64,000 nt of DNA from Psammoneis japonica (GCA_008632985.1 QPGO01000074.1:124001-188000), one strand, 5' to 3'; counted from the stretch's first letter, positions 24,461 to 64,000 are shown. The notes: generated from the sequence alone by a model not told the origin. A program made the numbers and translations.

Positions 24461-24646
24461 TTGCATGCAAAACAGCCACATTGGAAAAAACATGTCAAAT
24501 GACAAGTGAGCTCATGCGATGCACCATTTTGTTGGTGAATTGGACAAAAAAGAGTGTCCGTGCACCTCACTGCAGCCCCAAAAATGGCACAAGCCATCAA
24601 ACACAACAGTCATCTGCATCACTGGTGTGGTGGCCACGCCACCCTG
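24461..24646 (+). repeat. Dispersed ~185 bp direct repeat, copy 1 (copy 2 at 26364-26550)
   Basis: Shared cores caaaacag, gtgtccgtgcacct, ctgcagccc, aaaatggcac, agccatcaaa, gtcatctgcatca. Confidence 0.85.
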
Positions 24647-43836: not shown

Positions 43837-44038
43837 CGAAGAACTTTTCAGAAGAGGTTTAACTTGCGGCGTAAAGAGCAAATTATGAGAGCAAGGAATG
43901 AGGAGACTGAATGAGCAGTCACGGGAAATTCGCCGACATGAGCAGTCTCCGTCCGTAGAACTTGTACCAGCTTCTACGAATTCCTATCTCAACTGACAAA
44001 TGCGGCGACCGTTTCACTCCAGAAATGGAAAATCTTTT

Positions 44039-44357
44039 GTACTGGAAGCAACGTGAATTTCACGGATTCCTACTGTAACGGCAGGTTTTTTCATGGTAAC
44101 GGCCGCTAGACTGCAATGTACCGGAAGCTACGTAAATGCCACGGATTCCTACTGAAACGGCAGGTTTGCTCCATGGGTAACGGCAGCTACTAGAGTAAAA
44201 TGTACCGGAAGCTACGTGAATGCTACTGATTCCCACCGAAACGGCAGTTTTTTCAAAAGGTAACGGCAGCTAGACTGTCATGTACTGGATGTCACGTGAA
44301 TGCTACGGATTCCCATCGAAACGGCAGGGTTTTATCGATGGTAACGGCAGCTGGTAG
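44039..44357 (+). repeat. Degenerate tandem repeat, 4 units of 79-84 bp
   Basis: Units start gtacyggaag/atg at 44039, 44118, 44202, 44282; each carries two AACGGC motifs. Confidence 0.9.
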
Positions 44358-45051
44358 GGTTCAGCGTGCCTTCTACATCTCAGGGAAACGGCAGCCCAAC
44401 AACGGGGTCATTGCCGTAAAGCTTCGTATATTCAGTACGAGTTCCCATGGTAACGGCGGTATGCATGGTCATTGCATGCCGCGGCGGTGTCAGCCTCGGT
44501 GACGTGTCTCCCTTTTTTCCCTCCGACATGTTTTCACAGACCCAAGGGGCAGAATGAAAGACAACTGCCATGTCATTACAAATGCCTTCTGGCTTGGTCA
44601 TATTATACCATACCATCTGGATGGGCTGTACGATCACCATCAGCATTGGGAACCGATCGTCAATCAATGCGCATCCGACTCCGTTCCTTCTGTAATTATT
44701 CACACGTTCAAGTCTTTCGGCACAGGTAGAACCGAGTCGAGAGAAGCGTTGCCATTTATGATATTCATCTAAACGGCGGGGGGTTCAGCCCCTTGTTGGC
44801 ATCGCCTCGCGCATCGTGTTGTCGGCATCATCACGCTCCGACTCCCTCGACTGGTCGTCTTTCGGTATTCAGTGTATGAAGTTTAGCTATTTGTGCTGTT
44901 ATCTTATCAAGAATCGAGGCGAGCGAATGAACTCAAACGAGTTGGTCCTTAGAATAATGCCGTATAGAATAAAGAAGCTACTAGTATTCATATGTTGATC
45001 TACATCGTTCAACCACAATGTTTGTACAAAAATAGTACGGTCTCATTCCAT

Positions 45052-52085: not shown

Positions 52086-53965
52086 TCAGGCATTGTCATT
52101 ACGCAACTTCTCCACAACATAACCAGCACCGTCGTCACACATTGTGACCACAAATCCAGCAACAGGCCTCTTGTCTGCTCCGTCCTCCATTGTGCGACGT
52201 GTTTGAACATGTCCTGACAAATGCTCGTGAGATTTTGTGATAAAAGCAGGTGTTGGAGTATTCTGAACTTGTTTCAGTTCCAGTGTGACTACACAAGTCG
52301 CCGAACTGAATGTGACATCTGTCCGTTTTCCAGTCAGCGGCAAAATGTCCTCTTGAGTCGTCTGCACACTGCCTTTTAGAATGTCATGGGCCTCGTTGAT
52401 GACGTGCGACTGGAACTGAAGCTCCAAGATGTGATTGTCCTTGTCTGAGGAAGCCCAAGACATCAAACTTGCCATGTTGTTTTTCGAAATGGAAGTCACA
52501 AAGTCCACCAAAATCTCTTCACCTTTGTCGCAGAGATCTTCAGTGGTTGTGAGCGAAGTCAATGTTTCGAGGGATGCTCGCAGCGTTCTCAGCAGTGGTT
52601 CAAGGAGGTTTTCACGGTAGAAATCTGAGGTGATGGCGAATGTTGGATTGGTTTTCGATCCCGTTGATGACACCACTCCGAGGTGGACAAAAGCGTCAAG
52701 CAGTCACCGATGTCGATGTCTTCCCGCAATGGATGCTCCAAACTGAGTCCTTCGTTGAGCTTGTAGCCTTTCACTTCACGCCTTTCAGCCAGCTCATTTA
52801 CCACGCACCGAAGGTTCCAAGCATTTTCAAGGACGTTGAACATGGAAGACGGGATTGGTTCCCGGCATGAGCTTCCTGGCAAGGCGCCATCATGCAAGAA
52901 GCTGGCCCGAGAAGAAGGACTCCTGAGCAACTTGTTCATCAACGAATTGACCAAGCCTGTGTGATGGAGGGAGCTCCCCCCGAGAAAACGAAGGTTGTTG
53001 AAATGGCATTTGATCTTTTGGGAGGCAAGCTCAAGCTCCCCTTCTTTGAAGGGTGCATGCTCGTGGATCTCATCAAGCACACCACGAACATCAGCGTCAG
53101 TTGATCCAACAGCATCTGCCATGTCTTCCTCAAACGCAAGCGAGGCAACCGTAAGACCACTCATCTCTTTTGTGCCAATTGGAGTGATCCCCGTTGGCAA
53201 TGTTTTCACGTGGTCCAACTGCTCCAGGGCAACCTTGACAGCCCTGAAAAAAGAAAAGTGCGATCCGAACAGCACTGTGATGTTTGCGTTGACCTCCTTG
53301 TAGAGGTTGCGGCCATGCTCAGGAATTAGTCGCAGCAGGCCTTCCCGGATGGGTTGGTCGCATTCGTCAATGAGAATCAGCAATCGCCCTTGCAAAGAAT
53401 GCACAGCTGCACTCAGATTGCCAACCACCGTGCCAATTTGTTGATCGGCGATTTTGACGCCCACAGAAAACCTCTCGCAGGTTTGCTCCAGTTGCGGGTT
53501 TTGCGTCAACACGTAAATGACTCGGTGTTTGACAGCACTTGCAGTTGCCTTGTTGATGCTTTTGCAGACATCTTCCCATGTGCTCCTCTCACCATCTTCA
53601 ATTTGAGCGGAAGCGACGCCAAAGTCTAAGCGCAGGACAAACCAATTGTTCCCATCACCCTCGGACGGCGAATGACGCAGATCGCTGTCAATGTTGGAGC
53701 TTCTGTTCACCGAGAACAATTCGTCCGCAAGGGAGAAAAGCGTTGTTTTACCCAGTTGCATCGGGCGAGTGAACACTGCGGCATTGTCGTCGTGGTTGAA
53801 CATTTTCTCCAGAAACATGCTGTTGTCGCGGTGGCCACGGTCTTGACGATAGATTGCCGAAGCACCGTTCTGGTGTCGGCCAGGGAATCCAAAACTGGCT
53901 TTCATCCTTTTCGCTGATTCTTCATCTCCTGCATGAGATTCTTTGCTTTCACTTGAAGCGCTCAT
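52086..53965 (-). pseudogene. AAA-ATPase-like + PD-(D/E)XK nuclease gene, TpA-hypermutated, frameshift near 52680
   Basis: VFTRPMQLGKTT (Walker A), LILIDECDQP (IDEYD read as IDECD), FFRAVK, TGITP, KRTDVTF...TLELKQ. Confidence 0.8.
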
Positions 53966-54623
53966 GGCATCCTCATGCTTGGCTCTTTTGACGACTGGTT
54001 CTTCTTCATTGCAATGGGGGGTTGTGAGAGGCTCTCTGATCTCTGACCCCCACGTCTTGGCAAAGTGCGTTGAGCTTCAATGTTAACATCCACATGGATG
54101 TGCACATTTCCACAAGCAAAAATCCTTGTTCCATGCAGCTCCCCCAACAAATCTCTGACCACCAACATCCGAGGGCATGGCAGAGCACTTTTTGGAAGAT
54201 TGCGCACACATCACGAAAACAACATGCATTTTCATGACGACTCGACCATGATGATTGCCGGCCGCAGCGCGGCCATGGTGCCATCTGTCCGTCTGTCTGT
54301 CTGCATGCGAACTCAAGAACCGAACATTCTTCAATGTCCCGTTGAGTGTCTCAATGACTTGTTGCTCCTTGAAGCAAACTTCTGTGCCACACTTACGTCA
54401 GCAGCTGCAAGATTCGGGAGATTCGAATGACCGGGATTGTTGACACCTCTCGAAGAAATTCTGTGACAGAAACCCAAACACTGTGGCTGCAGTCAATCGC
54501 AGCTTTTCCCATGATTTTTAGAAAGCATTCGTGGACAACTTATCAAGACCGTTCACTGTGATCACACTGTGTCTTGTTCTCTCTTTCTCCTTTCTTCATT
54601 GTGCATTCTTCACCTTAAACGCA

Positions 54624-55547
54624 ATGTCGCATTTGGTGAGAGCTTCACTGAGAGCACCGTGTTTTGTGTGCAAACCAACCTTCAAACACGGAGATTTGGA
54701 CAAAGTGAAACTCGTGCAGAACTGCGACGATGGTGCCAAGAAACTGAAAATGTGTCCTCAATTCACTGGCAAGCACGGCATCGAGTGCTCACTCTACACT
54801 GCAGAGCGTTTTGAGAACTGTGCCGAGCATTTAGATTGTGATGAAGGACCTGAAAAATTCACCCATTTTGAAGAAGTGTCAGAAGACAACGCTCAAGATG
54901 TGTGGAGCAATTTGGTTTCAGGTGTCGCGGAAGCAGATCGGACCATGGCCAGGTTTGACACAGAAATCGCACGCTTTCATCAGCGACACTGTGATCATCA
55001 AGCGCGTGGTGCGATGTTTGAATTTTTGAAAAATTCTTCCAAACCTTTTGGTGATTCTCCTCGCGAGCATGCTGGCAGGATGATTCAAATGTCGCGTTGC
55101 GCCAACAAGCTGCCTGGAACTGAACCTTTGCTCAATGAGCAGCAAACCAAGAACATTGCATTCACGGGCATGCCGATGACATGGAAGCAGAATTGTGTGC
55201 GCACTGGAAAGGATGTCAGCACTGATTCTTTGGAAGATGTCATTCAACACATGTCCAATGAGAAAGGATTTGCTGATCAGAAAGGTGCTGCCAAGCCTGG
55301 CAATGATTCCAAGAAGCGCAAGGCTGGAGATGCGGAGTCTGCCGGGAACAGGAAGAAGTTTGGCCCCGACTCTCATTGTCGGTTGCACAAGGATTCTGCA
55401 GCACCTCATCTGTGGCAAAATTGCAGGGAGAATCCCAAGAGCCTGAACTGCAATCCAAATCCTCATTTTCAGAGAGGTGGCCGAGGTTCGCCAAGTGCAG
55501 GCCAAGATGCAGGCCGTGGACGAGGTCGAAACCCATGTTCAGGCTGA
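54624..55547 (+). pseudogene. gag of gypsy element A
   Basis: KPFGDSPREH...MP.TWKQ, zinc-knuckle-like CRLH......HLWQNC, GRG-rich tail. Confidence 0.7.
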
Positions 55548-58500
55548 GGAAATTATGGAGGCCGATTTTATGGTCCTCAGAACGCCAGCTGTGCTGGACG
55601 TGGACGTGGCGATGGCGGACACACTCCCAATGACAGTTTTGGACGTGGTCAAGGCGGACATGGCCGTGGTTGCAACCAAAACAGCATGGGCCGAGGATGC
55701 GGTCCACAGAATTTGCCTCAAAATTTTCACGCGAATCAAAATCAGGTGCAGAGTGGTTCAGGAGAACCAAATGCTCATCCAGCTCAACGAGCTCCTCCGA
55801 CTGATGCTCAGTCACAAGAATGGGGTGCAGATGTGCGCCATTTCGACATGGCAGGCTGTGGTCCGCCAGGAGGTCCTGACGAGACGTCAGGAGGAACGGA
55901 TGTCGGATGAGGTCCACATCCAAGAGGACCTGGATTATGATCCAGTTTGGAGTGCTGCTCCAGTCTTGGCGTCAGCTTTGAAGTTGACAACACCATTGCC
56001 ATTGACACAAATGCACCAATTGAGCACGAAATCTTTGTGTGACACATGTTTGTCACATGGAATCGACAGCGCGAAAAATCAAGAAGAGCCGATGGGGTTG
56101 CTTTGTGCTGGTGTGCCGGCACCCAAAACAAAAAACATGAATTCTAACATGGCACCTGCATCAGTGCTTGCATGCAAACAAATGAACGGAGCTCACTCTT
56201 CTCGTTCATTGAGAGTGTCATTTGATTCAGGCAGCATGACTGCTCTCATTCACGAGCGATGTTTGGCGCGTGGAGCTGCTCCAAGTCCACTCAAGAAAAC
56301 AGCAGCATGTGGTGCAGCTGCAGGACCAATGAAGAGCAGCAGAACAGTTGGTTTGGAGACAACAATGCTGCCTGAATTTGACAGATCATGGAGCATTGAT
56401 TTCCAAAAAGCTCTGATGTTTCAAACACCGTGTTGTTGCGACGTGATTCTTGGATCGGATTTTTTGGCCAAGGCTGGAATTGATGTAAATTTCTCATCAA
56501 GGACAGTCAAGTGGTTGGACAAGTCCATGCCTGTGAAAGAACTTGCCTTTTGGGACAATGCAGAGAACACTCATTTTGCTCTTGCAGGTCCAGAAGTCGA
56601 AGAAGAAATCGACGCAGTCGAGTTCCATGCATTCGCCATGCAAATTCTGGACGCCAAGTGTGAGTCAGCATCTCTGGAAGAAGCAGCTAAGAGGCAAACA
56701 CATGTGTCAAGAGAGCAACAACCGGAGTCGCAACAAGTGCCAGCCAAGTTCCCCAAAGTGTTCGACGGAAAATTGGGTCGACACCCACACAAATTGGTTC
56801 ATTTGGAAATCGACCCTAGCGCGATTCCGGTTCATGCTCGACCGCACTCAGTTCCAAAGGTTCATGAGGAGGTTTTCAAGAAAGAGCTTCAGCATTTGGT
56901 TCAGATGGAAGTGCTGAGACCATGTGGTCCCACCCATTGGGCATCTCCTTCATTTGTTGTTCCTAAAAAGGATCAACGAGTGCGGTGGGCATCCGATTTT
57001 TGCACGCTCAACAAAGCGTTGAAGAGGTTGATCTGTCCTTCACCAAGAATGCAAGACATTGTCAAGAAGAGAAAAGGGTGCAAGTGCTTCACCAAGTTGG
57101 ATCTGTTCATGTTCCATTGTGCTTTTGAGCTGGATGAAGAATCCAAGGAACCATGTGCCCTTGTCACTCCTTGCAGCAAGTTTCAACATTGTCGGCTCGC
57201 GATGGGTTTGAAACCAGCGGCAGATGTTGCTCAAGCAGTTGTTGAAGAAGTGATGAATGAGCTTGATGCAGATTGTTTTGTTGATGATGTTGGTCTCTTC
57301 TCAATGGTTTGGTCTGAGCATTTGGCAGCATTGAGTGCCGCATTGCAACATTTGGAACAAAACGGTTTGAAAGTGAACCCGCTCAAGTGCGAGTGGGCCG
57401 TTCAAGAAACTGATTTTTTGGGACATTGGATGGCTCCAGAAGACGAGCAGCTCGAGGAAAATTTGGGCCCGGAATTGAACACTCCATTCTGCACCATTCA
57501 AGATCAAGAATTGGTGGATTGCTTCTTGAATTGTCCGAGTCTGGAAGAAATGCAACACCCCTTGAATTGTCCTGACACACAAAGGTTTCAGTTTGAAGAT
57601 TGTGAGCTGAATCAAGAGCGGCAGAGGAACCCGCTTCGATTTCCGACTCGATGCGTCGGTGGAGTTCCATTGATTTGTTGGAGGCCTGAAATCAATGCTC
57701 AAGAAAATGACTGGAAAATTGCTTCACCAACTGCTTTGTTGGCGCCTGTGGTCAGGTGGCATCATCAAGTTTTAGGGCATTGTGGCATGCAAAAGCTCTG
57801 TTGCACGATTCATGCGCATTGCTGTCATCCGTTGTTGCGCCGATTGGTCGAAAATTGTCATTGCGACATGTGCCAAAGGAACAAACTTTGGGGAGTTGGA
57901 TGTGGTCACTTGCCACCAAGAGAAGCTCCTTTAGTTCCGTGGGATGAAGTGGCCGTTGATTTAATTGGTCCTTGGAAAGTGCAAGTGCAAGAACAGGAAG
58001 TCGAATTTAACGCATTGACGGCAATTGACGCTGTTTCTAACCTTGTGGAATTGGCTCACATTGACAACAAGACTTCAGATCATGTGCAGATGAAGTTTGC
58101 CAATTGTTGGTTGGCAAGATGTCCGAAACCAAACCGCTGCATTCATGACAAGGGCGGCGAATTTGTTGGTGAGCCATTTCAGATTCTGTTGGCGAGGGCT
58201 GGAATCAAAGACGTGGAAACCACCACTGGAAATCCTCAAGCCAACGCCACTTGCGAAAGAATGCATCAAACAGCTGGCAACATCATTCAAACCACAGTCA
58301 GGGGACATCCCCCTTGCAATGTGACAGAGGCTCAACACATCGTTGACAACGCATTGGCCACAACCATGCACGGTTTACGGTGTGCCACCTCAAGAGTTTT
58401 GGGAATTTCGCCAGGAGCTCTCATTTGCCAGAGAGACATGTTCCTTGATTCACCTCTCATTGCAGATTCAACTGCCGTTCGGAATCGTTGGCAAGTGTTG

Positions 58501-58803
58501 ATTGATGACAACTTGCATCGGCAAAATCTCAAAAGACGCTTTTTCGACTGTCGTGTCGGGCAACAAATTTTGGTCAAAACAGACGATCCCACCAAATTGG
58601 AAGAAAGATCTTTTGGTCCCTTTCCTGTCACACAGGTTCATGCAAATGGAAGCGTCACCATGCAAAGAGCACCTCATGCATTTGAAAGAATCAACATTCA
58701 GCGCATTTTGCCGCATCGACTTCAGCATGATCAAATGGATTGCGATTCAACGCATTCGCATGAATTGCGGAAGGGAAGAGTGAAGCAAACTTCTGCATCA
58801 TAA
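55477..58803 (+). pseudogene. pol of gypsy element A (protease, RT, integrase; RNase H deleted), open but saturated with missense changes
   Basis: FDSGS, DVILGSDFL, WASPSFVVPKKD, FTKLD, RLAMG, CFVDD, VNPLKCEW, VDLIGPW, HDKGGEF, NPQANATCERMHQ, GPFPV. Confidence 0.92.
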
Positions 58804-59016
58804 TTGCATCAGCAGCTGCAAGATTCGGGAGATTCGAATGACCGGGATTGTTGACACCTCGAAGAAATTCTGCGACAGAAACCCAAACACTGTGGCTGCA
58901 GTCAATCGCAGCTTTTCCCATGATTTTTAGAAAGCATTCGTGGACAACTTGTCAAGACCGTTCACTCCCATGAGAACGTTCTGGTTTCTATGAAGAATTC
59001 TTGTTGTGTGTCTTGA

Positions 59017-59514
59017 CCCTTCAACCACCAGGGGAGCAAATCTCCACGGGTGGAGATTTGCTCTGCTTGAGGATGTGTGACGTCTCATGCACTTTTACAA
59101 TGACATGATGAACACAGCAGAAAAATGTCATGTCCTGTGCAATCTGCATGTGGTGTGCCACGTGCATTTGCTTGTTGGGAGCAAATCTCCACCGGCGGAG
59201 ATTTGCTCCCAGGGTGTGGTGTTGTTGCTCCATTTGTGACAGTGATTCATGAAAACCTCAATTGCTGAAGGTTGAGATTTGGTTCCTCTCCATTCACAGA
59301 TGGAGCTTGCAAAAAACCCGGCGTTGAAAGGCGACATTGAACTTTCTCAACCACAAAAAGGGCGCCTCCAGATTTTCGGCGAGCGTGCGTTCCAGAACAA
59401 AATCGCATGAACAAAATGTTGTGCACATCTGAAATTGCTTCATTTGCCACATTTGTGACACAAGCGAGCAAATCTCCACCCGCGGAGATTTGCTCAAGTC
59501 CAGTGGTTGAAGGG
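59017..59514. mobile_element. piggyBac-like MITE in the 5' LTR of element B; TSDs read TTGA and TCAA (ancestral TTAA)
   Basis: TIR CCCTTCAACCAC / GTGGTTGAAGGG; the empty site in the sister LTR is TTAA (62146-62149); three internal gagcaaatctcc-ggagatttgctc hairpins. Confidence 0.88.
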
Positions 59515-60536
59515 TCAATTGCGAGACTTCCAGCACATGTTGTGCGTGTGTCCTGCGAGGACCCTTGACAAGAGCCTTGAGAAGTGGTTCTAAAGCTCTC
59601 CTTTAATCAGGCTCACAACTCATCTGTGAGCCCAATTTGCTGCAAGCACATCTTGTCCATCAATCTGTCAACTGTCACTTGATGCCACACTCGGCACAGC
59701 AAATTTGCTCCCCGTTTCTGAACACCCCATCCTTTGCTTCCACGAAGCCTCCAACATCTGCAGCAAGTTCTGCGAATTGTCCTGACCAGCCATGTCAGCC
59801 AAAAGCTGTCCTTTCCGTCTTGTTTGCTCTGAACGAACAAATGAAAAATGTCGCAAAGATCGTTTTGTGTCACTCCAGTCACCTCTCGATCCCAAAAACC
59901 CTGGTGGTCTCAAGTCTGCCATGGAATTGCGTGTGTCAGACAGTGAAGACCCTGAAGACACTCTCGCTTTCTTCAAGCGATTTGAAGAGATTTTTGTCAT
60001 CCTCAACATTGCAGAAGGAGCTCAACGTTTCCGTCTGATCAACCACCTGTTGGCTGGCCAACCATTGAATGACTGGACTGCTGTTGTCAAAGAGCATGAA
60101 GAACGCGATCAAGACACTTTCCTCGCAGCACGCGAAGAATGTCTCCTGACTGAGATGACCCGCAACATTGCGGTGGACACCAAAGATTGGCTGCAGTCCC
60201 TCAGGAAACCACGCAATGATGCCGCACAGTCATTTCTCCACTGCGTCCATCAGATCAATGATCTCATTCCATTCATGCCACTGCCTGCAGATGAAGAAGA
60301 TGCACAGCCCATTCCCAAGTTCGCAGAAGTGGAGTTGACTGCTGTCATCCGAAAAGCATGTCCCAAATCCTGGAAAAATTCTCAAGTCAAAGCAAACTTG
60401 CGCGGACTCAATCTCAGCAATCAAGTTCAACACTGCGAGGGTCTGCGCAACATTGAGAATTCAGATTCATCCTCACTGCCTCATCAAAACTGCAATGCAA
60501 CCGCACAGCAATCCAAAACAGAGTCAAGCAGCAAGG

Positions 60537-60932
60537 GACGCGTTCCAGACGTAGGTGGGAATCCGTGTGACATTGGGCCCGTAGACTTCTACGTGCGAGC
60601 TCCGTAGTAAAATTATACGGTAATTATAATGTCAATGATCGCCAACAGAAAATGAGGCAATTTTGCGAACGCACAAACTCGCACATGATTGAAGTACATC
60701 ATTTTTTACTTAGCCAGTTACATTCTTCAGACATTGAAGAATGTAACTGGCGCATATTTGTTTCTATAAATTTGTTATATAAAACGTCTGGGGCTTCGCA
60801 AAACAGCGAGTCTGGACAATTTTTTTTAAATATCACACGTAGAAATCTACGTACGAAACATACGACGGATGATAAAAATTATTGTTGTCACACGTCAGCA
60901 CTACGAGCTCCCACCTAGGGCTGGAACGCGTC
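60537..60932. mobile_element. Unmutated MITE with 24-bp TIRs and 4-bp TSD AAGG, inserted in gag of element B
   Basis: gacgcgttccagacgtaggtggga versus inverted gacgcgttccagccctaggtggga; aagg at 60533-60536 and 60933-60936; removal rejoins ORFs 59792 and 60882 (SSK-DQQAL). Confidence 0.9.
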
Positions 60933-62321
60933 AAGGATCAGCAAGCCTTGCAACAAAAATCCAACAACTCCAGCTCGAGTTCCCAAACAAACAACACATG
61001 TCCAATCCATGGAACAGTCCATCCAAATGGACAAGAGTGCAATGTTGTTCACCGTGAGCGAGAAATCTGCCAACAGCGACATCAACAAAGGCTTCGACAT
61101 GTCCAACTCTCAGAAAACACCAGCTCAGACAACCAAACTCAGAGCCAGTCGCAACAGCAGCCAACTTGTTGCTGCAATCTGTGCAGCAGAAGCAACCAAC
61201 AAAGAAACAATGAAAACAACGCGATGGAAGATCCTTCCAGCACCTGCAATGATCCCCCAGACGATCTTGGAAGCGCGCCATCTGAAACCATCAATGAAAT
61301 CTGTGATCTTCATGATGAAATCAATGAGATTGAAAGTCAGAACACTCAAGAATCTCAACAAAATGTCAGCGCAGATGTGCAAGTGCAACTCACCTCATCC
61401 TCCACCTCTCACACAGAGCAGGCACTCAGTCTCCTCGACTCTGGAGCCAACAACAACTGCGCCAAGCACGAAGCCCTTGAAAAAATCTCCCATCAAATCA
61501 AACCAATTTCTGCACCGGTGCAAAGCCGCTACAAATCAGTTCAAGTTCAGAACAAGGCAGCACCCAACATTGCATTGCCTGAATTTTCTCAATCGAAGAC
61601 TGCTGCCATCGAAGCGCACGTCAAAGATGGTGCAATCGGTCGTCATGCCATTGTTGTCGGTCGCCGAACGCACAAACAACTCAGCATTGTTCTGGATTTC
61701 ACGACTGCCACAATGACCTGTGGCAACGTCACCATCCCCATGAAAACAGAAAACAAGACTCAACATGCCACCTGTGAAGACTGGCATCATGTCAATCGAA
61801 AATGTCAAAACGCCCCACTTCAAGTCACCTCCACAAGTTGGCTCAAGCCTGAACTCCTCTCCACCAATCACTCGAAGTCCAAACTTAACTCTGCCAATGG
61901 CACAGTCACCATCCAGAGCTCTCCCAATGTCACTGAACGAATCAACATCCATCGTCTTCACCCTGTCTTCTAGACTGTTCAGTTGGGGAAGCGAGTGCCG
62001 TGGTGCCATCTGTCTGTCTGTCTGTCTGTCTGTCTGCATGCGAACTCAAGAACCGAACATTCTTCAATGTCCCGCCAAGTGTCTCAACAACTTGTCACTC
62101 CTGTGAGAACGTTCTGGTTTCTATGAAGAACTCTTGTTGTGTGTCTTAATTGCGAGACTTCCAGCACATGTTACACGTGTGTCCTGCAAGGACCCTTGAC
62201 GAGAGCCTTGAGAAGTGGCTCCAAAGCTCTCCTTTGCATCTGTGAACCCAACTTGCTTCAAGCATGTCTCATCTGTCAACATGTCAACTGTGTTTCACTT
62301 GGTGCCACATTTGGCAATGAT

Positions 62322-64000
62322 GCCTCGGGGTTCTTCCCCATCACCTTCCCAGGACACCGGCCCCACTGGCGCCATTGACAACAACACTGACACAACAGGT
62401 GATGTCATCACTCTGGTTTTCGTGGGCGCGACACATTCAGAACAAGACACTGCAAACTGACACTGTCATCTCCATGCTCCACTGCCTCCCAACAGATGCT
62501 GTCAAGAACTCCAGTGCCGCACCTGCGCTTCGGGCCCCTGGCATGCCCAACACTGTTGCTCCTGCCCTTGCTGTCACAGGTGCTGTTGACACTGTTGTTG
62601 TCTTTTGCCAATGACGTCGCACCGTCATTTTGGAGAAGCCATCAAAAAAGCACACTGCCCAGACTTGTCGAATGAGCATTTAGATTTGGCATGCAACAAG
62701 CTTTGCGATTTGTTTCTGGAGGTGCTGGGTGCCATTGATGTGGGAGTGAAAAGGTCAAAGAAGGTGTTGATCACATCCATGAGGACAACACGGGTTTGTC
62801 TCGCTGTGTGGCTTGTTCAAATCCCCACTGGAATGAAGTGGATGCCACTGGAGAAAAGCCCAGCCTTGACAACAGGTTTGAAGTTGCCAGCTCCATTTGT
62901 GGGGAAGAGTTTCTCTCCATTCTGGTCAACATTGTTGAGAGCAACATCCCTGCCCGCTCCCCAGTGCAAAAGACATTGTTGACGCACAGCAAAGTTGATG
63001 CATCATGGGAGGTGATTTGCTTTGAGAGTGGCAGCTTGTGCCTTGGTGAAACCACCTTTGCTGCAACCTGGAAAAGGAACACAGCATTGATCCGCTCATC
63101 AAGTTTGTTCTCTGCATGGATGCAGCTGGCATGTGGCATGTTCAGGCTGTCACTGTGGAAGGAAGAGGGATGTGTTTTCAACCCAGGTGGGTCACTCGGG
63201 GACAATGCACGAGGTTTTCTATGCATTTCTACATGACATGCACTTTTTGCACCACAATCGTGTGCAATTTTCGAGCTCCCACATGACGCTGTCTTTTTTT
63301 CATGCCTCATCCACAAATCGCGCACACCAAAAATGGCACCATGCCACTGCCACGAACTTGACCATCCTCACACCATCGTCCGCAATGACAAAGAAGGCAA
63401 GAATGCCAAAAGAGGTCAACAAGACTGAGATCAATGCGATGATGTGGTTGAAGTTTTGATTTTTGCCATTTGCCATGTCTTGTGGATGGCCTTTTTCCTC
63501 GTGACATTTTTTGTGCCAATTTTTCTTGTCCTCAGATTGTGATGTGGCATTCTTTGACATGCAAGGCTCTGTTGACTTGATGCTTCACACACGCAACAAT
63601 GCATGTCTTTATGATGTGTCTGTTTGATTTTTGTGATGCATTGAGTGCACTTTAAGTTGGCATGGACGACGCTTTTGGGTCGCGCACAAATGTCAAACAT
63701 TGGCGCTGACAAAAGAATGACTCTGCATTCAGTTTTGAGGGTGCACGGCAATGAAGAAGCCACTGGACGAGTCTGACAGGTGCAACATTGTAAAGCAGAA
63801 CAAAAAAAAGTGACACCCATGTGTTGCACCCATTTTGCTTTGTTCCAAGGTAGAGCCAGTCAACTGCATGTGGAAATGCTGTCTGCACTTCATTGTCACC
63901 ACTGCCTCTGCTCATCAAATGACTTGATCACTCTGCATTCATCAAACTTTGTTGCTGACATTTCAGTGCTGGCATGCAACTGACTCAAGACTCCCACACA
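62322..64000. other. TpA/CpG-depleted decayed sequence, unidentified, continues past the window end
   Basis: Near-absence of TA, TG/CA excess, overlapping Cys/His-rich ORFs. Confidence 0.65.

Follow-up and report, generated by a model that had tools for sequence, protein, structure and literature searches.

A nested Ty3/gypsy element of Psammoneis japonica with the probable marks of TpA to TpG/CpA hypermutation, in part acquired after integration

The 64-kb window studied here, i.e. the whole stretch of Psammoneis japonica DNA that was analysed and to which all coordinates refer, harbours a dead Ty3/gypsy LTR retrotransposon, element A, which is nested in an older element, B. The evidence comes from this one window. 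The explanation which best accounts for the observations as a whole, and to which we assign a probability of roughly 0.8, is that the nested elements have undergone hypermutation at the DNA level, by which TpA would be converted into TpG or CpA (A:T>G:C at TpA, whichever the strand), with at least part of the loss in A having occurred in place after its entry into the 5' LTR of B. Besides A and B, the process would have reached a TIR element residing in the LTR of B as well as several other sharply bounded stretches. A slower decay of CpG to TpG/CpA, presumably caused by deamination of methylated cytosine, is superimposed on it.

Element A lies on the plus strand. Its left target-site duplication, CTCCT (54365-54369), is directly followed by the TG which starts the LTR, and a single copy of it is found in the sister LTR at 62098-62102. 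The 5' LTR (TG...CA, 186 nt, 54370-54555) and the 3' LTR (184 nt, 58781-58964), both delimited by repeat family and alignment, are 95% identical; a polypurine tract read in the sequence (58769-58780) is located immediately 5' of the latter. The right duplication, CTCCC (58965-58969), deviates from the left copy and from the sister LTR in its last base (T>C) and is succeeded by ATGAG (58970-58974). As expected of a Ty3/gypsy insertion, the two copies of the 5-bp duplication are alike, here at four of five positions, and the empty site, CTCCT-GTGAG, is kept in the sister LTR, which is the 3' LTR of B, at 62098-62107. The interior contains a gag-like open frame (54522-55547, 341 aa with one Tyr, no Pfam match) and the pol open frame (55447-58803, 1118 aa with one Tyr), in which Pfam, BLASTP and tblastn indicate protease (DSG), RT and integrase, in this order. 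While the RT part (about 56959-57429) matches Pfam RVT_1 at 9.2e-15, the rve match of the integrase part (about 57988-58236) is weak (E 0.0015, below the cut-off); BLASTP shows this integrase to be 69% identical to the integrase part of the homologue P0001. The RNase H to be expected in a Ty3/gypsy pol is missing according to BLASTP, as residues 477-710 of P0001 find no match and the junction falls at 57438/57439. Since RNase H is absent, A is a deleted derivative rather than an intact member, and, as judged from its sequence, it is a non-autonomous Ty3/gypsy LTR retrotransposon lacking this domain.

Element B, also on the plus strand, is an internally deleted LTR element into whose 5' LTR A inserted with the 5-bp duplication. 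The first part of this LTR (54271-54364, 5' edge approximate) aligns to 61998-62097, and its remainder, likewise placed by alignment (58970-59697, 3' edge approximate), is broken by a TIR element of 500 nt. Open frames and tblastn reveal in the interior (59698-61997) a frame resembling gag, the remains of a protease (61431-61745) and the tail of an integrase (61893-61967), with neither RT nor RNase H nor integrase core detected by these two approaches. When the window was searched by tblastn with five homologues, pol remnants were found in A and B only. The 3' LTR (61998-62319, edges approximate) holds the empty sites of both insertions; the TIR element (59016-59515, without assigned strand) inserted at a position where this sister LTR shows a single TA (62147-62148). 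It contains one TA in 502 nt and is flanked by TG (59014-59015) and CA (59516-59517). Seven contigs of run X1, a DNA run used as contigs which may represent the assembly's own sample, diverge past 59515, their consensus beginning with TA (agreement 0.48). A further TIR element of 396 nt (60537-60932, no strand assigned, 4-nt duplication AAGG) is unedited, with 31 TA in 399 nt and observed/expected ratios of 0.90 for TA and 1.45 for CG, even though the interior of B beside it possesses no TA in 845 nt on one side and three in 1058 nt on the other. It belongs to a very high-depth family, whose summed X1 contig depth amounts to 116,474 compared to about 60 in single-copy flanks (~1900x), and X1 contigs carry its empty-site joints at 60531>60932 and 60534>60937. 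The nesting provides an internal clock: B came first and was followed by A and one TIR element, all three of them edited; the TA-rich TIR element, which is unedited, arrived last.

The window as a whole is a mosaic in which TA-free domains alternate with normal host genes. The borders of the TA depletion are sharp at a resolution of 100 nt; 25 of the 64 1-kb windows, about 40% of the sequence, show a TA observed/expected ratio of at most 0.20, and stretches of 2016 and 1443 nt contain no TA at all. In the interior of A this ratio is 0.06 and in its LTRs 0.14-0.22, compared to 0.40-0.65 in ten host ORFs, whose Tyr content of 2.1-4.0% accompanies their normal TA. TG and CA reach 1.52 and 1.59 in the interior of A. 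Per kb, depleted domains differ from normal ones by -33.2 TA, -31.3 CG, +32.8 TG and +30.1 CA, i.e. the combined loss of TA and CG matches the combined gain of TG and CA. Pfam matches to host genes among 126 ORFs fall almost entirely inside the normal-TA domains, and no Pfam match of any kind comes from the depleted ones at 4-6, 13-16.6, 21.5-28.3 and 34-35.3 kb. The 1-kb and 100-nt profiles, the Pfam matches and the Tyr content of the ORFs place the depletion in discrete regions of presumably mobile or foreign origin, with host genes spared. The host genes are uninterrupted ORFs, and the top named matches of the host KIN17 protein all come from diatoms (63-70% identity). A dinoflagellate spliced-leader motif gave 0 matches with up to three mismatches allowed, a result without bearing on the identity of the host.

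Modified bases may lead to systematic errors when long reads are assembled. An artefact of assembly or base calling at modified TpA might therefore be considered, as might an element family natively poor in TA through selection on its RNA, given that CpG and UpA suppression is known from RNA viruses (PMC3829696). We give practically no credence to either. The host genes of the window are normal in both Tyr and TA, and a TA-rich element sits within the TA-free interior of B. An X1 contig reproduces the TA-poor, single-copy region 52407-54320 with five differences, none of them at a TA, with the restriction that X1 may be the assembly's own sample; the window was found in X1 alone, X2 and X3 having next to none of its words. 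Together with the sharp borders, these observations argue that the depletion is neither artefactual nor regional. A native TA-poor family is further contradicted by the Tyr losses described below, which include catalytic-domain positions and hence indicate decay rather than adaptation. The underlying process would be a targeted, episodic defence against mobile DNA and not a regional mutation bias.

The direction of the change is disclosed by protein homologues. Tyr is the residue of at least 60% of 30 homologues at 19 columns, and A has retained it in none of these, showing Cys (10), His (6), Phe (2) or Trp (1) instead. The polarity TA>TG/CA follows from the conversion of TAY into TGY (Cys) and CAY (His), which accounts for 16 of the 19 losses. 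Other conserved residues are largely kept (Trp 10/10, His 12/13, Cys 13/15, Asp 27/30). Tyr constitutes 2.6-4.6% of the residues in all 120 homologues, compared to one of 1118 in the pol of A. Among 120 mismatches at conserved columns, reversion of TA>TG/CA undoes 40, reversion of CpG changes 10 and a mirror control 23. Both products are present and the strands are balanced, with 23 sense A>G and 17 sense T>C changes (p=0.43). As read from this comparison, the change in A proceeded from TA to TG/CA and symmetrically between strands. The original prediction had postulated this direction and it holds, albeit on the evidence of Tyr rather than of the duplication and LTR pair, from which it had been deduced. 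The best homologue, P0001 (56-69% identity), was rejected as the unedited parent of A, as TA/CG reversion undoes just 85 of 349 mismatches, which assigns P0001 to another lineage. At the protein level, a 146-aa RT fragment of A matched 65 proteins, none with more than 62% identity, so that no paralogous copy of A emerged from this search.

All items listed in the original prediction, namely both duplications and the empty site, are present in the sequence, as are the differences it named within the LTRs of A (cata/caca at 54390, ttac/ttgc at 54395, ttatc/ttgtc at 54542, gtg/gca at 54385-54386) and of B (ctaaag/ccaaag at 59591, ttgtgc/ttacac at 59541-59544). The selection is incomplete, though: for LTR A, 54387 C/T, 54392 C/A (a transversion), 54397 CG/CA and 54464 TG/CG had been omitted, and for LTR B the two listed sites stand against 33-39 mismatches in all. 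Among the omitted mismatches are those of CpG type, two in LTR A and four in LTR B, which point to a slower CpG decay alongside. The duplication was supposed, together with the LTR pair, to supply direction. It polarises a single base, the T>C in the right copy, by virtue of the T shared by the left copy and the sister LTR, whereas the LTR pair carries no polarity. The proposed ancestor ctcctatgag does require only two changes, but a TG ancestor likewise requires two and a CG ancestor three. The evidence originally adduced is thus thinner than the claim built on it.

That part of the TpA loss of A took place after integration, as had also been claimed, is borne out by three observations: the mismatch of the duplication copies at a T preceding A, converted TA sites in the LTRs of A and TG/CA double steps (TG in one LTR, CA in the other) in those of B. 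The LTR pair of A differs by nine substitutions and one 2-nt indel across 184-186 aligned nt. Three of its TA sites are half-converted and one is doubly converted; the pyrimidine-purine (YR) steps comprise TA/TA 1, TA/TG 2, TA/CA 1, TG/CA 1, CG/CG 7 and CG with another step 2. Seven of the nine mismatches fall in YR steps, which cover 86 of 184 columns (Fisher p=0.085), and the one TG/CA double step compares with 0.05 expected, 265 of 5000 shuffles reaching one. Taken alone, LTR A is statistically weak and not decisive (p about 0.05-0.085). In the LTR pair of B, with 33 (trimmed, 297 nt) to 39 mismatches, 7-8 TG/CA double steps are present where 0.53 are expected, and none of 5000 shuffles reaches seven, which is strong evidence for an excess beyond chance. 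The repeat pair 24468/26371 displays 12 such steps compared to 1.75 expected (0 of 5000 shuffles), and none is present in the tandem repeat 44038-44352, which lies in a domain of normal TA and served as a control. The in-window sample is small, self-BLAST of the window having yielded eight repeat pairs.

According to a competing explanation, CpG methylation-deamination and generic transitions would generate the mismatches of LTRs and duplication, the TG/CA double steps being derived from CG. Decay of CpG is real: CG observed/expected ratios vary between 0.04 and 0.8 across depleted domains, the pol of A deviates from the homologue consensus by R>H (4), R>Q (2) and R>C (1), CG/TG or CG/CA steps occur in both LTR pairs, and CpG is involved in 18 of the 34 steps which differ between the window and the X1 contigs. 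It is, however, incapable of removing Tyr codons or of lowering the TA ratio to 0.06. Moreover, most CpG steps of the LTRs have survived (seven CG/CG in A and six in B), a model on step counts predicts about 0.05 (A) and 0.3 (B) CpG-derived double steps where 1 and 7-8 are seen, and the stretch 51.0-54.27 kb is poor in TA (0.18) with CG almost normal (0.84). We therefore regard CpG decay as very improbable as the sole cause. With respect to present-day variation, the 40 differences with the best support that set the X1 contigs apart from the window (34 steps: CpG 18, TG/CA double steps 5, TA 2) are dominated by CpG and thus suggest CpG-driven change; this comparison, with TA in 2 of 34 differing steps, does not show ongoing TpA editing.

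How much of the loss preceded the integration of A is a separate question. The two LTRs keep five TAs compared to about 14 expected at normal-domain density, while the interior keeps 17 compared to about 159, and the single TG/CA double step contrasts with about three expected had the LTRs been edited as far as the interior. Much of the TA loss in the interior may hence predate this integration, or the LTRs may have been edited less. Editing predominantly before integration, be it of RNA or cDNA in an ADAR- or APOBEC-like manner or through mobilisation in trans of an edited source copy, with a minority of changes in place, would agree with the 95% identity of LTRs which are less depleted than the interior. 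Lacking RNase H and the conserved Tyr residues, A must have been mobilised in trans. The summed X1 depth over its interior is about 6-17 times single-copy at a likeness of at least 90%, and at 56723 and 58250 most X1 depth shares one state from which the window differs, which fits changes inherited by descent. On the other hand, the 23:17 balance would not be expected for a single-stranded intermediate, non-retroelement DNA (the TIR element 59016-59515 and the single-copy region at 51-54 kb) is edited too, and post-integration changes are directly seen in duplication and LTRs. Furthermore, the accessible text of the Bigelowiella natans preprint discussed below places the process in the integrated DNA of vegetatively growing cells. 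A mainly pre-integrational origin therefore appears unlikely to us, and editing of intermediates by ADAR- or APOBEC-type enzymes is rejected on account of the balanced strands, the LTRs differing at TA sites and the depletion of the TIR element and single-copy DNA.

For hypermutation of integrated DNA, the enzyme which we favour would be a DNA adenine deaminase with T-A as its site, in line with the proposal made for B. natans; as far as is known, tRNA A34 deaminases always act adjacent to U33. Since TA is its own complement, adenine deamination (A>G) and thymine modification (T>C) leave the same pattern and are indistinguishable by sequence. 5-Formyluracil mispairs with G. A TET/JBP-type dioxygenase might accordingly convert thymine at TpA of silenced repeats to 5-hydroxymethyl- or 5-formyluracil and so provoke T>C changes. 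In the dinoflagellate Amphidinium carterae, a TET/JBP homologue produces 5hmU, which is concentrated in repeats and silences transposons, and earlier work cited there found thymine replaced preferentially in TA and TC dinucleotides (PMC11572971, accessible portion). For P. japonica both modification and enzyme are candidates only, and no comparable loss of TpC is observed, T/C mismatches before T or C being few in the LTR pairs examined. We rate thymine modification as rather doubtful.

Among PMC open-access papers and bioRxiv, the only other report of TpA>TpG/CpA hypermutation which we found is one 2026 preprint on B. natans (Mettrop et al., bioRxiv 10.64898/2026.01.13.699255, 2026). Its accessible parts report that, in mutation-accumulation lines, integrated viral DNA was measured to hypermutate by A:T>G:C changes at TpA only, and describe a genome with clusters depleted in TpA and enriched in CpA and TpG, whose TpA-depleted coding sequences are enriched in RT and DDE domains. 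As in P. japonica, TpA alone is hit, the product is TpG or CpA depending on the strand, and the long-term depletion and enrichment appear as clustered 1-kb windows. There, as here, single-copy DNA can be a target, and the activity is described as not constitutive. The cases differ in that the host is here probably a diatom with uninterrupted genes, compared to eight introns per gene on average in B. natans (PMC13746701, Table 1), and that the signature is far denser, 25 of 64 1-kb windows contrasting with the 124 clusters which the accessible text gives for the whole B. natans genome. These uninterrupted genes and the KIN17 relatives also led to the rejection of B. natans as the host. In P. 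japonica, the targets shown comprise a TIR element as well as LTR retrotransposons, and nesting, duplications and LTR pairs serve to date them. The preprint reports a measured de novo mutation rate, whereas we read the signature from one assembled window. The words LTR, retrotransposon, CpG, flank and context are all absent from its main text.

Repeat-induced point mutation (RIP) of ascomycete fungi resembles the present case in being restricted to transitions, in killing mobile elements in place, in its sharp dinucleotide-skewed domains and in distorting ages. RIP converts C to T mostly at CpA and produces TpA. Its direction is thus opposite, as TpA is destroyed and CpA/TpG produced here, and RIP in duplicated DNA with an excess of TpA was dismissed for this reason. 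Unlike in RIP, copy number is not the simple trigger, since a single-copy stretch is edited and a family of ~1900x depth is not. CpG methylation-deamination of silenced transposons also ends in TpG/CpA and affects the same domains of the window, yet it is slower and separable: some TA-free domains are near-normal in CpG, and loss of Tyr codons is beyond its reach. APOBEC, recorded in vertebrate LTR retrotransposons (PMC4866542, accessible portion), and ADAR likewise leave deaminase-type hypermutation in integrated LTR elements. APOBEC targets single-stranded cDNA and leaves G>A changes in the plus strand, ADAR targets RNA and leaves A>G changes in the sense strand, and both are hence strand-biased, in contrast to the balance found here.

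The warning that LTR dating overestimates age proves justified within the window. Jukes-Cantor distances over all sites compared to those outside YR steps are 0.051 and 0.021 for A and 0.120 and 0.062 for B, i.e. the LTR-pair distance is inflated about 2-fold. Edited elements consequently appear about twice their true age, and LTR-divergence dating in such genomes will be off by this factor unless pyrimidine-purine steps are masked. Editing destroys the stops TAA and TAG, for which reason dead elements keep long open frames; the 8-kb segment examined, 54300-62300, is overlapped by 39 frames with a length of 80 aa or more, and that of the dead pol extends over 1118 aa. Gene predictors will call such frames.

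The observations would represent a second, phylogenetically distant case of TpA hypermutation, in this instance on retrotransposons and a TIR element. With somewhat less than even odds, this diatom lineage may possess a TpA-specific base-editing defence which is episodic, sharply bordered, faster than CpG decay and prefers R-T-A-Y over Y-T-A-R. If so, its occurrence in a diatom as well as in Bigelowiella (Rhizaria) would mean that TpA editing is ancient or has evolved repeatedly among eukaryotes, and it would suggest that a dinucleotide-specific adenine editor of DNA, or else a thymine oxidiser of this specificity, occurs in nature.

The nested Ty3/gypsy retrotransposon A is bounded by two direct long terminal repeats (LTRs) at 54370-54555 (186 nt) and 58781-58964 (184 nt), which start with TG, end with CA and, upon alignment, share 95% identity, differing by nine substitutions and an indel of 2 nt. 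Ahead of the 3' LTR lies a polypurine tract (58769-58780). The interior consists of a gag-like frame and a pol frame of 1118 aa harbouring a DSG protease motif, a reverse transcriptase domain (Pfam RVT_1, 9.2e-15) and an integrase which matches rve weakly and is 69% identical to the integrase part of P0001, the best protein homologue of A's pol. Since the RNase H part of P0001 (residues 477-710) finds no counterpart in A, the junction being located at nt 57438/57439, A is a deleted, non-autonomous element. Its flanks are two pieces of a single LTR belonging to the older element B. The 5' LTR of B is split into three segments (~54271-54364, 58970-59014 and 59517-59697), while the other (~61998-62319) contains the uninterrupted site CTCCTGTGAG at 62098-62107. 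What is left of the coding part of B amounts to a gag-like frame, the remnant of a protease and the tail of an integrase.

The target-site duplication of A reads CTCCT on the left (54365-54369) and CTCCC on the right (58965-58969). The affected T, which precedes an adenine, is retained in the left copy as well as in the sister LTR of B. As both copies of the duplication were identical at insertion, the T to C change in the right copy postdates the insertion of A, which bears out the claim of the original prediction that mutation followed integration. The TA ancestor that had been proposed for this boundary, with a later TG in the sister LTR, is compatible with the data and requires two changes; a TG ancestor equally requires two (a CG ancestor three), and the site is hence no proof of it. 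All mismatches named beforehand are present in the sequence, those in the LTRs of A being the five TA-type positions 54385-6 (TG/CA), 54390 (CA/TA), 54395 (TA/TG) and 54542 (TA/TG). The list was selective, however, as it omitted 54397 (CG/CA), 54464 (TG/CG), 54387 (C/T), 54392 (C/A) and the indel, and as its two sites in the LTRs of B, both real, stand among 33 (trimmed) to 39 differing positions.

Because a pair of LTRs has no polarity, protein homologues were taken as outgroup; 30 of them were aligned with A's pol, and 120 were fetched in the same search. The tyrosine content of these 120 ranges from 2.6 to 4.6%. At the 19 columns occupied by Tyr in at least 60% of the 30 aligned homologues, A contains Cys ten times, His six times, Phe twice, Trp once and Tyr not at all. 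The codon changes TAY>TGY and TAY>CAY correspond precisely to TA>TG and TA>CA, and within the window the predicted direction of the change is supported. Other consensus residues are kept in A to varying extent (Trp 10/10, His 12/13, Cys 13/15, Asp 27/30, Arg 22/36, Ile 16/30). Over the conserved columns of pol, 40 of the 120 mismatches are undone by TA-type reversion, compared to 23 by a mirror-image control rule and 10 by CpG-type reversion. On the sense strand, 23 A>G changes stand beside 17 T>C changes, a balanced outcome (p=0.43) which favours a mechanism that works on double-stranded DNA, or on each of the two strands, over editing of RNA or of a single cDNA strand.

Throughout the window the observed/expected ratio amounts to 0.37 for TA, 1.36 each for CA and TG, and 0.78 for CG; in 25 of the 64 1-kb windows TA drops to 0.20 or less, with TG and CA at 1.35-2.3. 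The TA-depleted domains (~3.9-5.9, 12.9-16.6, 21.5-28.3, 33.9-35.4 and 51.3-64 kb) have borders which are sharp at 100-nt resolution and include TA-free runs of up to 2016 and 1443 nt. Per kb, they differ from the normal domains by -33.2 TA, -31.3 CG, +32.8 TG and +30.1 CA, a balance predicted by the conversion of TA and CG to TG and CA. Normal domains harbour host genes as uninterrupted ORFs, among them KIN17, an ABC transporter, an aldo-keto reductase, an AMP-binding enzyme and an FG-GAP protein, with 2.1-4.0% Tyr and a TA ratio of 0.40-0.65; the corresponding values for the frames of A and B are 0-0.3% and 0.00-0.06. The 8 kb of 54300-62300 are overlapped by 39 open frames with a length of 80 aa or more, long ones being present on both strands, due to the destruction of TAA and TAG, and in the depleted domains an open frame is no evidence for an intact gene. 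The segment 51300-54270 is TA-poor (0.18) with near-normal CpG (0.84), is single-copy by depth (assessed from 52000) in X1, a DNA sequencing run used as contigs with depth, and carries on the minus strand an open frame (52592-54076; 0.8% Tyr) with a Predicted AAA-ATPase domain; it may represent a gene of foreign or mobile origin, though not a retro-element, that underwent editing recently. A further open frame at 62739-63233, situated in a TA- and CG-poor domain, matches the central part of the profile for the MYG1 exonuclease family (positions 128-221 of 318) and has no Tyr in 165 aa. Possibly, it is a host-gene fragment caught in an edited domain.

The YR (pyrimidine-purine) steps of the LTRs of A comprise TA/TA (1), TA/TG (2), TA/CA (1), TG/CA (1), CG/CG (7), CG/TG (1) and CG/CA (1) besides 29 concordant TG or CA steps. 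A simple decay model applied to these counts yields ~6 TA sites at integration, near the normal-domain density of 37.7/kb, a loss per copy of ~0.57 for TA and ~0.11 for CpG, and ~0.05 double mismatches derived from CpG. Seven of the nine substitutions fall within 13 nt (54385-54397), a patch which by this reading once held several adjacent TAs. With respect to double steps, i.e. TG in one repeat copy and CA in the other, the LTRs of A alone are marginal, as 265 of 5000 shuffles reach their single one. The LTRs of B show 7 (trimmed) to 8 double steps compared to 0.53 expected from shuffled transitions, at least 7 occurring in none of 5000 shuffles, and the repeat pair 24468-24655/26371-26559 shows 12 compared to 1.75 expected (0/5000). 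As a control, a tandem repeat from a normal domain (44038-44360; unit of ~80 nt; 18 transitions among 35 mismatches) has no double step and has kept TA/TA at 11 and CG/CG at 12 positions. The 188-nt direct repeats at 24468 and 26371 are 76.6% identical and have no TA left. They probably represent LTRs from an element that is far older and has decayed completely, situated in the 21.5-28.3 kb domain, in which hardly any CpG is left either. A TIR element of 500 nt (59016-59515), located inside the 5' LTR of B and missing from the sister LTR, is TA-free and has TG on one side and CA on the other, at a point occupied by a single TA in the sister LTR. The consensus of seven X1 contigs diverging after 59515 begins with TA (agreement 0.48). 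Assuming the transposon type, the pattern agrees with a TA duplication of which one copy was edited to TG and the other to CA. The element contains three near-identical hairpin palindromes (~59033-59065, 59181-59210 and 59467-59497), and its summed X1 depth is ~40-65x single-copy.

The LTRs of A retain 5 TAs compared to ~14 at normal density, its interior 17 of ~159, and editing of the LTRs to the same extent as the interior would be expected to leave ~3 double steps instead of the single one. In addition, A was mobilised in trans since RNase H is missing, the summed depth of X1 contigs of at least 90% likeness over A is ~6-17x that of the single-copy flanks, and at two of the sites listed (56723 and 58250) most of this depth has a common state absent from the window copy. 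Considering these observations, A may have received part of its interior TpA loss from a source copy that had undergone editing before; another possibility is weaker editing at the ends of elements.

CpG decay is a second, slower process which contributes to the pattern beside TpA loss. CpG is depleted unevenly, with ratios of 0.84 at 51.0-54.27 kb, where TA has already fallen to 0.18, of 0.63-0.67 in A and B, of 0.40 at 62.3-64 kb and of 0.04-0.2 at 22-28 kb. Comparing the window with the X1 contigs, 311 transitions and 33 transversions were counted overall. The 40 best-supported differences, 304 further ones lying outside this tally, correspond to 34 distinct steps (18 CpG, 5 TG/CA doubles, 2 TA, 10 non-YR). 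Judged by this CpG share, variation today is CpG-driven; TpA loss in these elements seems to have been rapid and to be essentially complete. The single-copy contig 52407-54320 shows 5 differences in 1915 nt, all of them transitions and four of these CpG<>TpG/CpA, which suggests CpG decay still under way or differences between strains. The expected overestimation of element age by LTR dating is evident in the window: the Jukes-Cantor distance over all sites is 0.051 for A and 0.120 for B compared to 0.021 and 0.062 outside YR steps, i.e. inflated ~2.4-fold and ~1.9-fold, with the nesting order (B older than A) unaffected by either distance. Within the window, the original interpretation is supported, on stronger evidence than its own.

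A second TIR element (396 nt, 60537-60932), flanked by the 4-nt duplication AAGG in the interior of B, is not depleted (31 TA in the 399 nt counted; TA 0.90, CG 1.45), whereas its flanks contain no TA in 845 nt and three in 1058 nt. Its summed X1 depth of 116,474 compared to ~60 for single-copy sequence (~1900x) does not represent a calibrated copy number; X1 also includes contigs in which the site is empty. The family is very abundant and apparently unedited. As this high-depth family is unedited inside B, and as 52.0-54.0 kb is TA-poor though single-copy by depth, the trigger is neither simply copy number, by which it differs from that of fungal RIP, nor a standing regional bias. Episodic editing which was over before this last insertion would fit best. 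Among surviving TAs, the context Y-TA-R accounts for 50 of 115 in depleted compared to 220 of 1477 in normal domains (Fisher 2.7e-12), and R-TA-Y for 6 of 115 compared to 457 of 1477. With host sequence as baseline, this tentatively suggests that editing prefers R-T-A-Y.

The same chemistry is described for Bigelowiella natans in a preprint (Mettrop et al., bioRxiv 10.64898/2026.01.13.699255), according to whose main text two integrated viral regions acquired 231 de novo mutations, of which 230 are A>G or T>C and lie without exception at TpA, at a rate of ~6e-7 per site per generation and in some lines only. The genome of this species is reported to contain 124 TpA-depleted clusters enriched in CpA and TpG, TpA-depleted CDS being enriched in RT and DDE domains; the words LTR, retrotransposon, CpG, flank and context are absent from the main text. 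B. natans itself is probably not the host of the present sequence: its genes average 8 introns (PMC13746701, Table 1) in contrast to the uninterrupted ORFs of the window, and among named sequences the host KIN17 protein finds its best relatives, at 63-70% identity, exclusively in diatoms (Minutocellus, Thalassiosira, Cyclostephanos, Pseudo-nitzschia, Stephanodiscus). One short RT relative bears the label Ditylum. Regarding the enzyme, the authors of the preprint propose an ADAT2-like deaminase. Oxidation of thymine instead of deamination of adenine, which sequence alone does not separate, appears unlikely to us as the mechanism, even though in a dinoflagellate 5hmU produced by a TET/JBP enzyme is described to mark and silence transposons, preferentially at TA and TC according to older work cited there (PMC11572971). 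No further account of transposons hypermutated at TpA turned up in the full-text literature (PMC open-access and bioRxiv), whether in diatoms or elsewhere. A kind of hypermutation otherwise found in a single preprint of 2026 is thus encountered here in a distant lineage and in retrotransposons.
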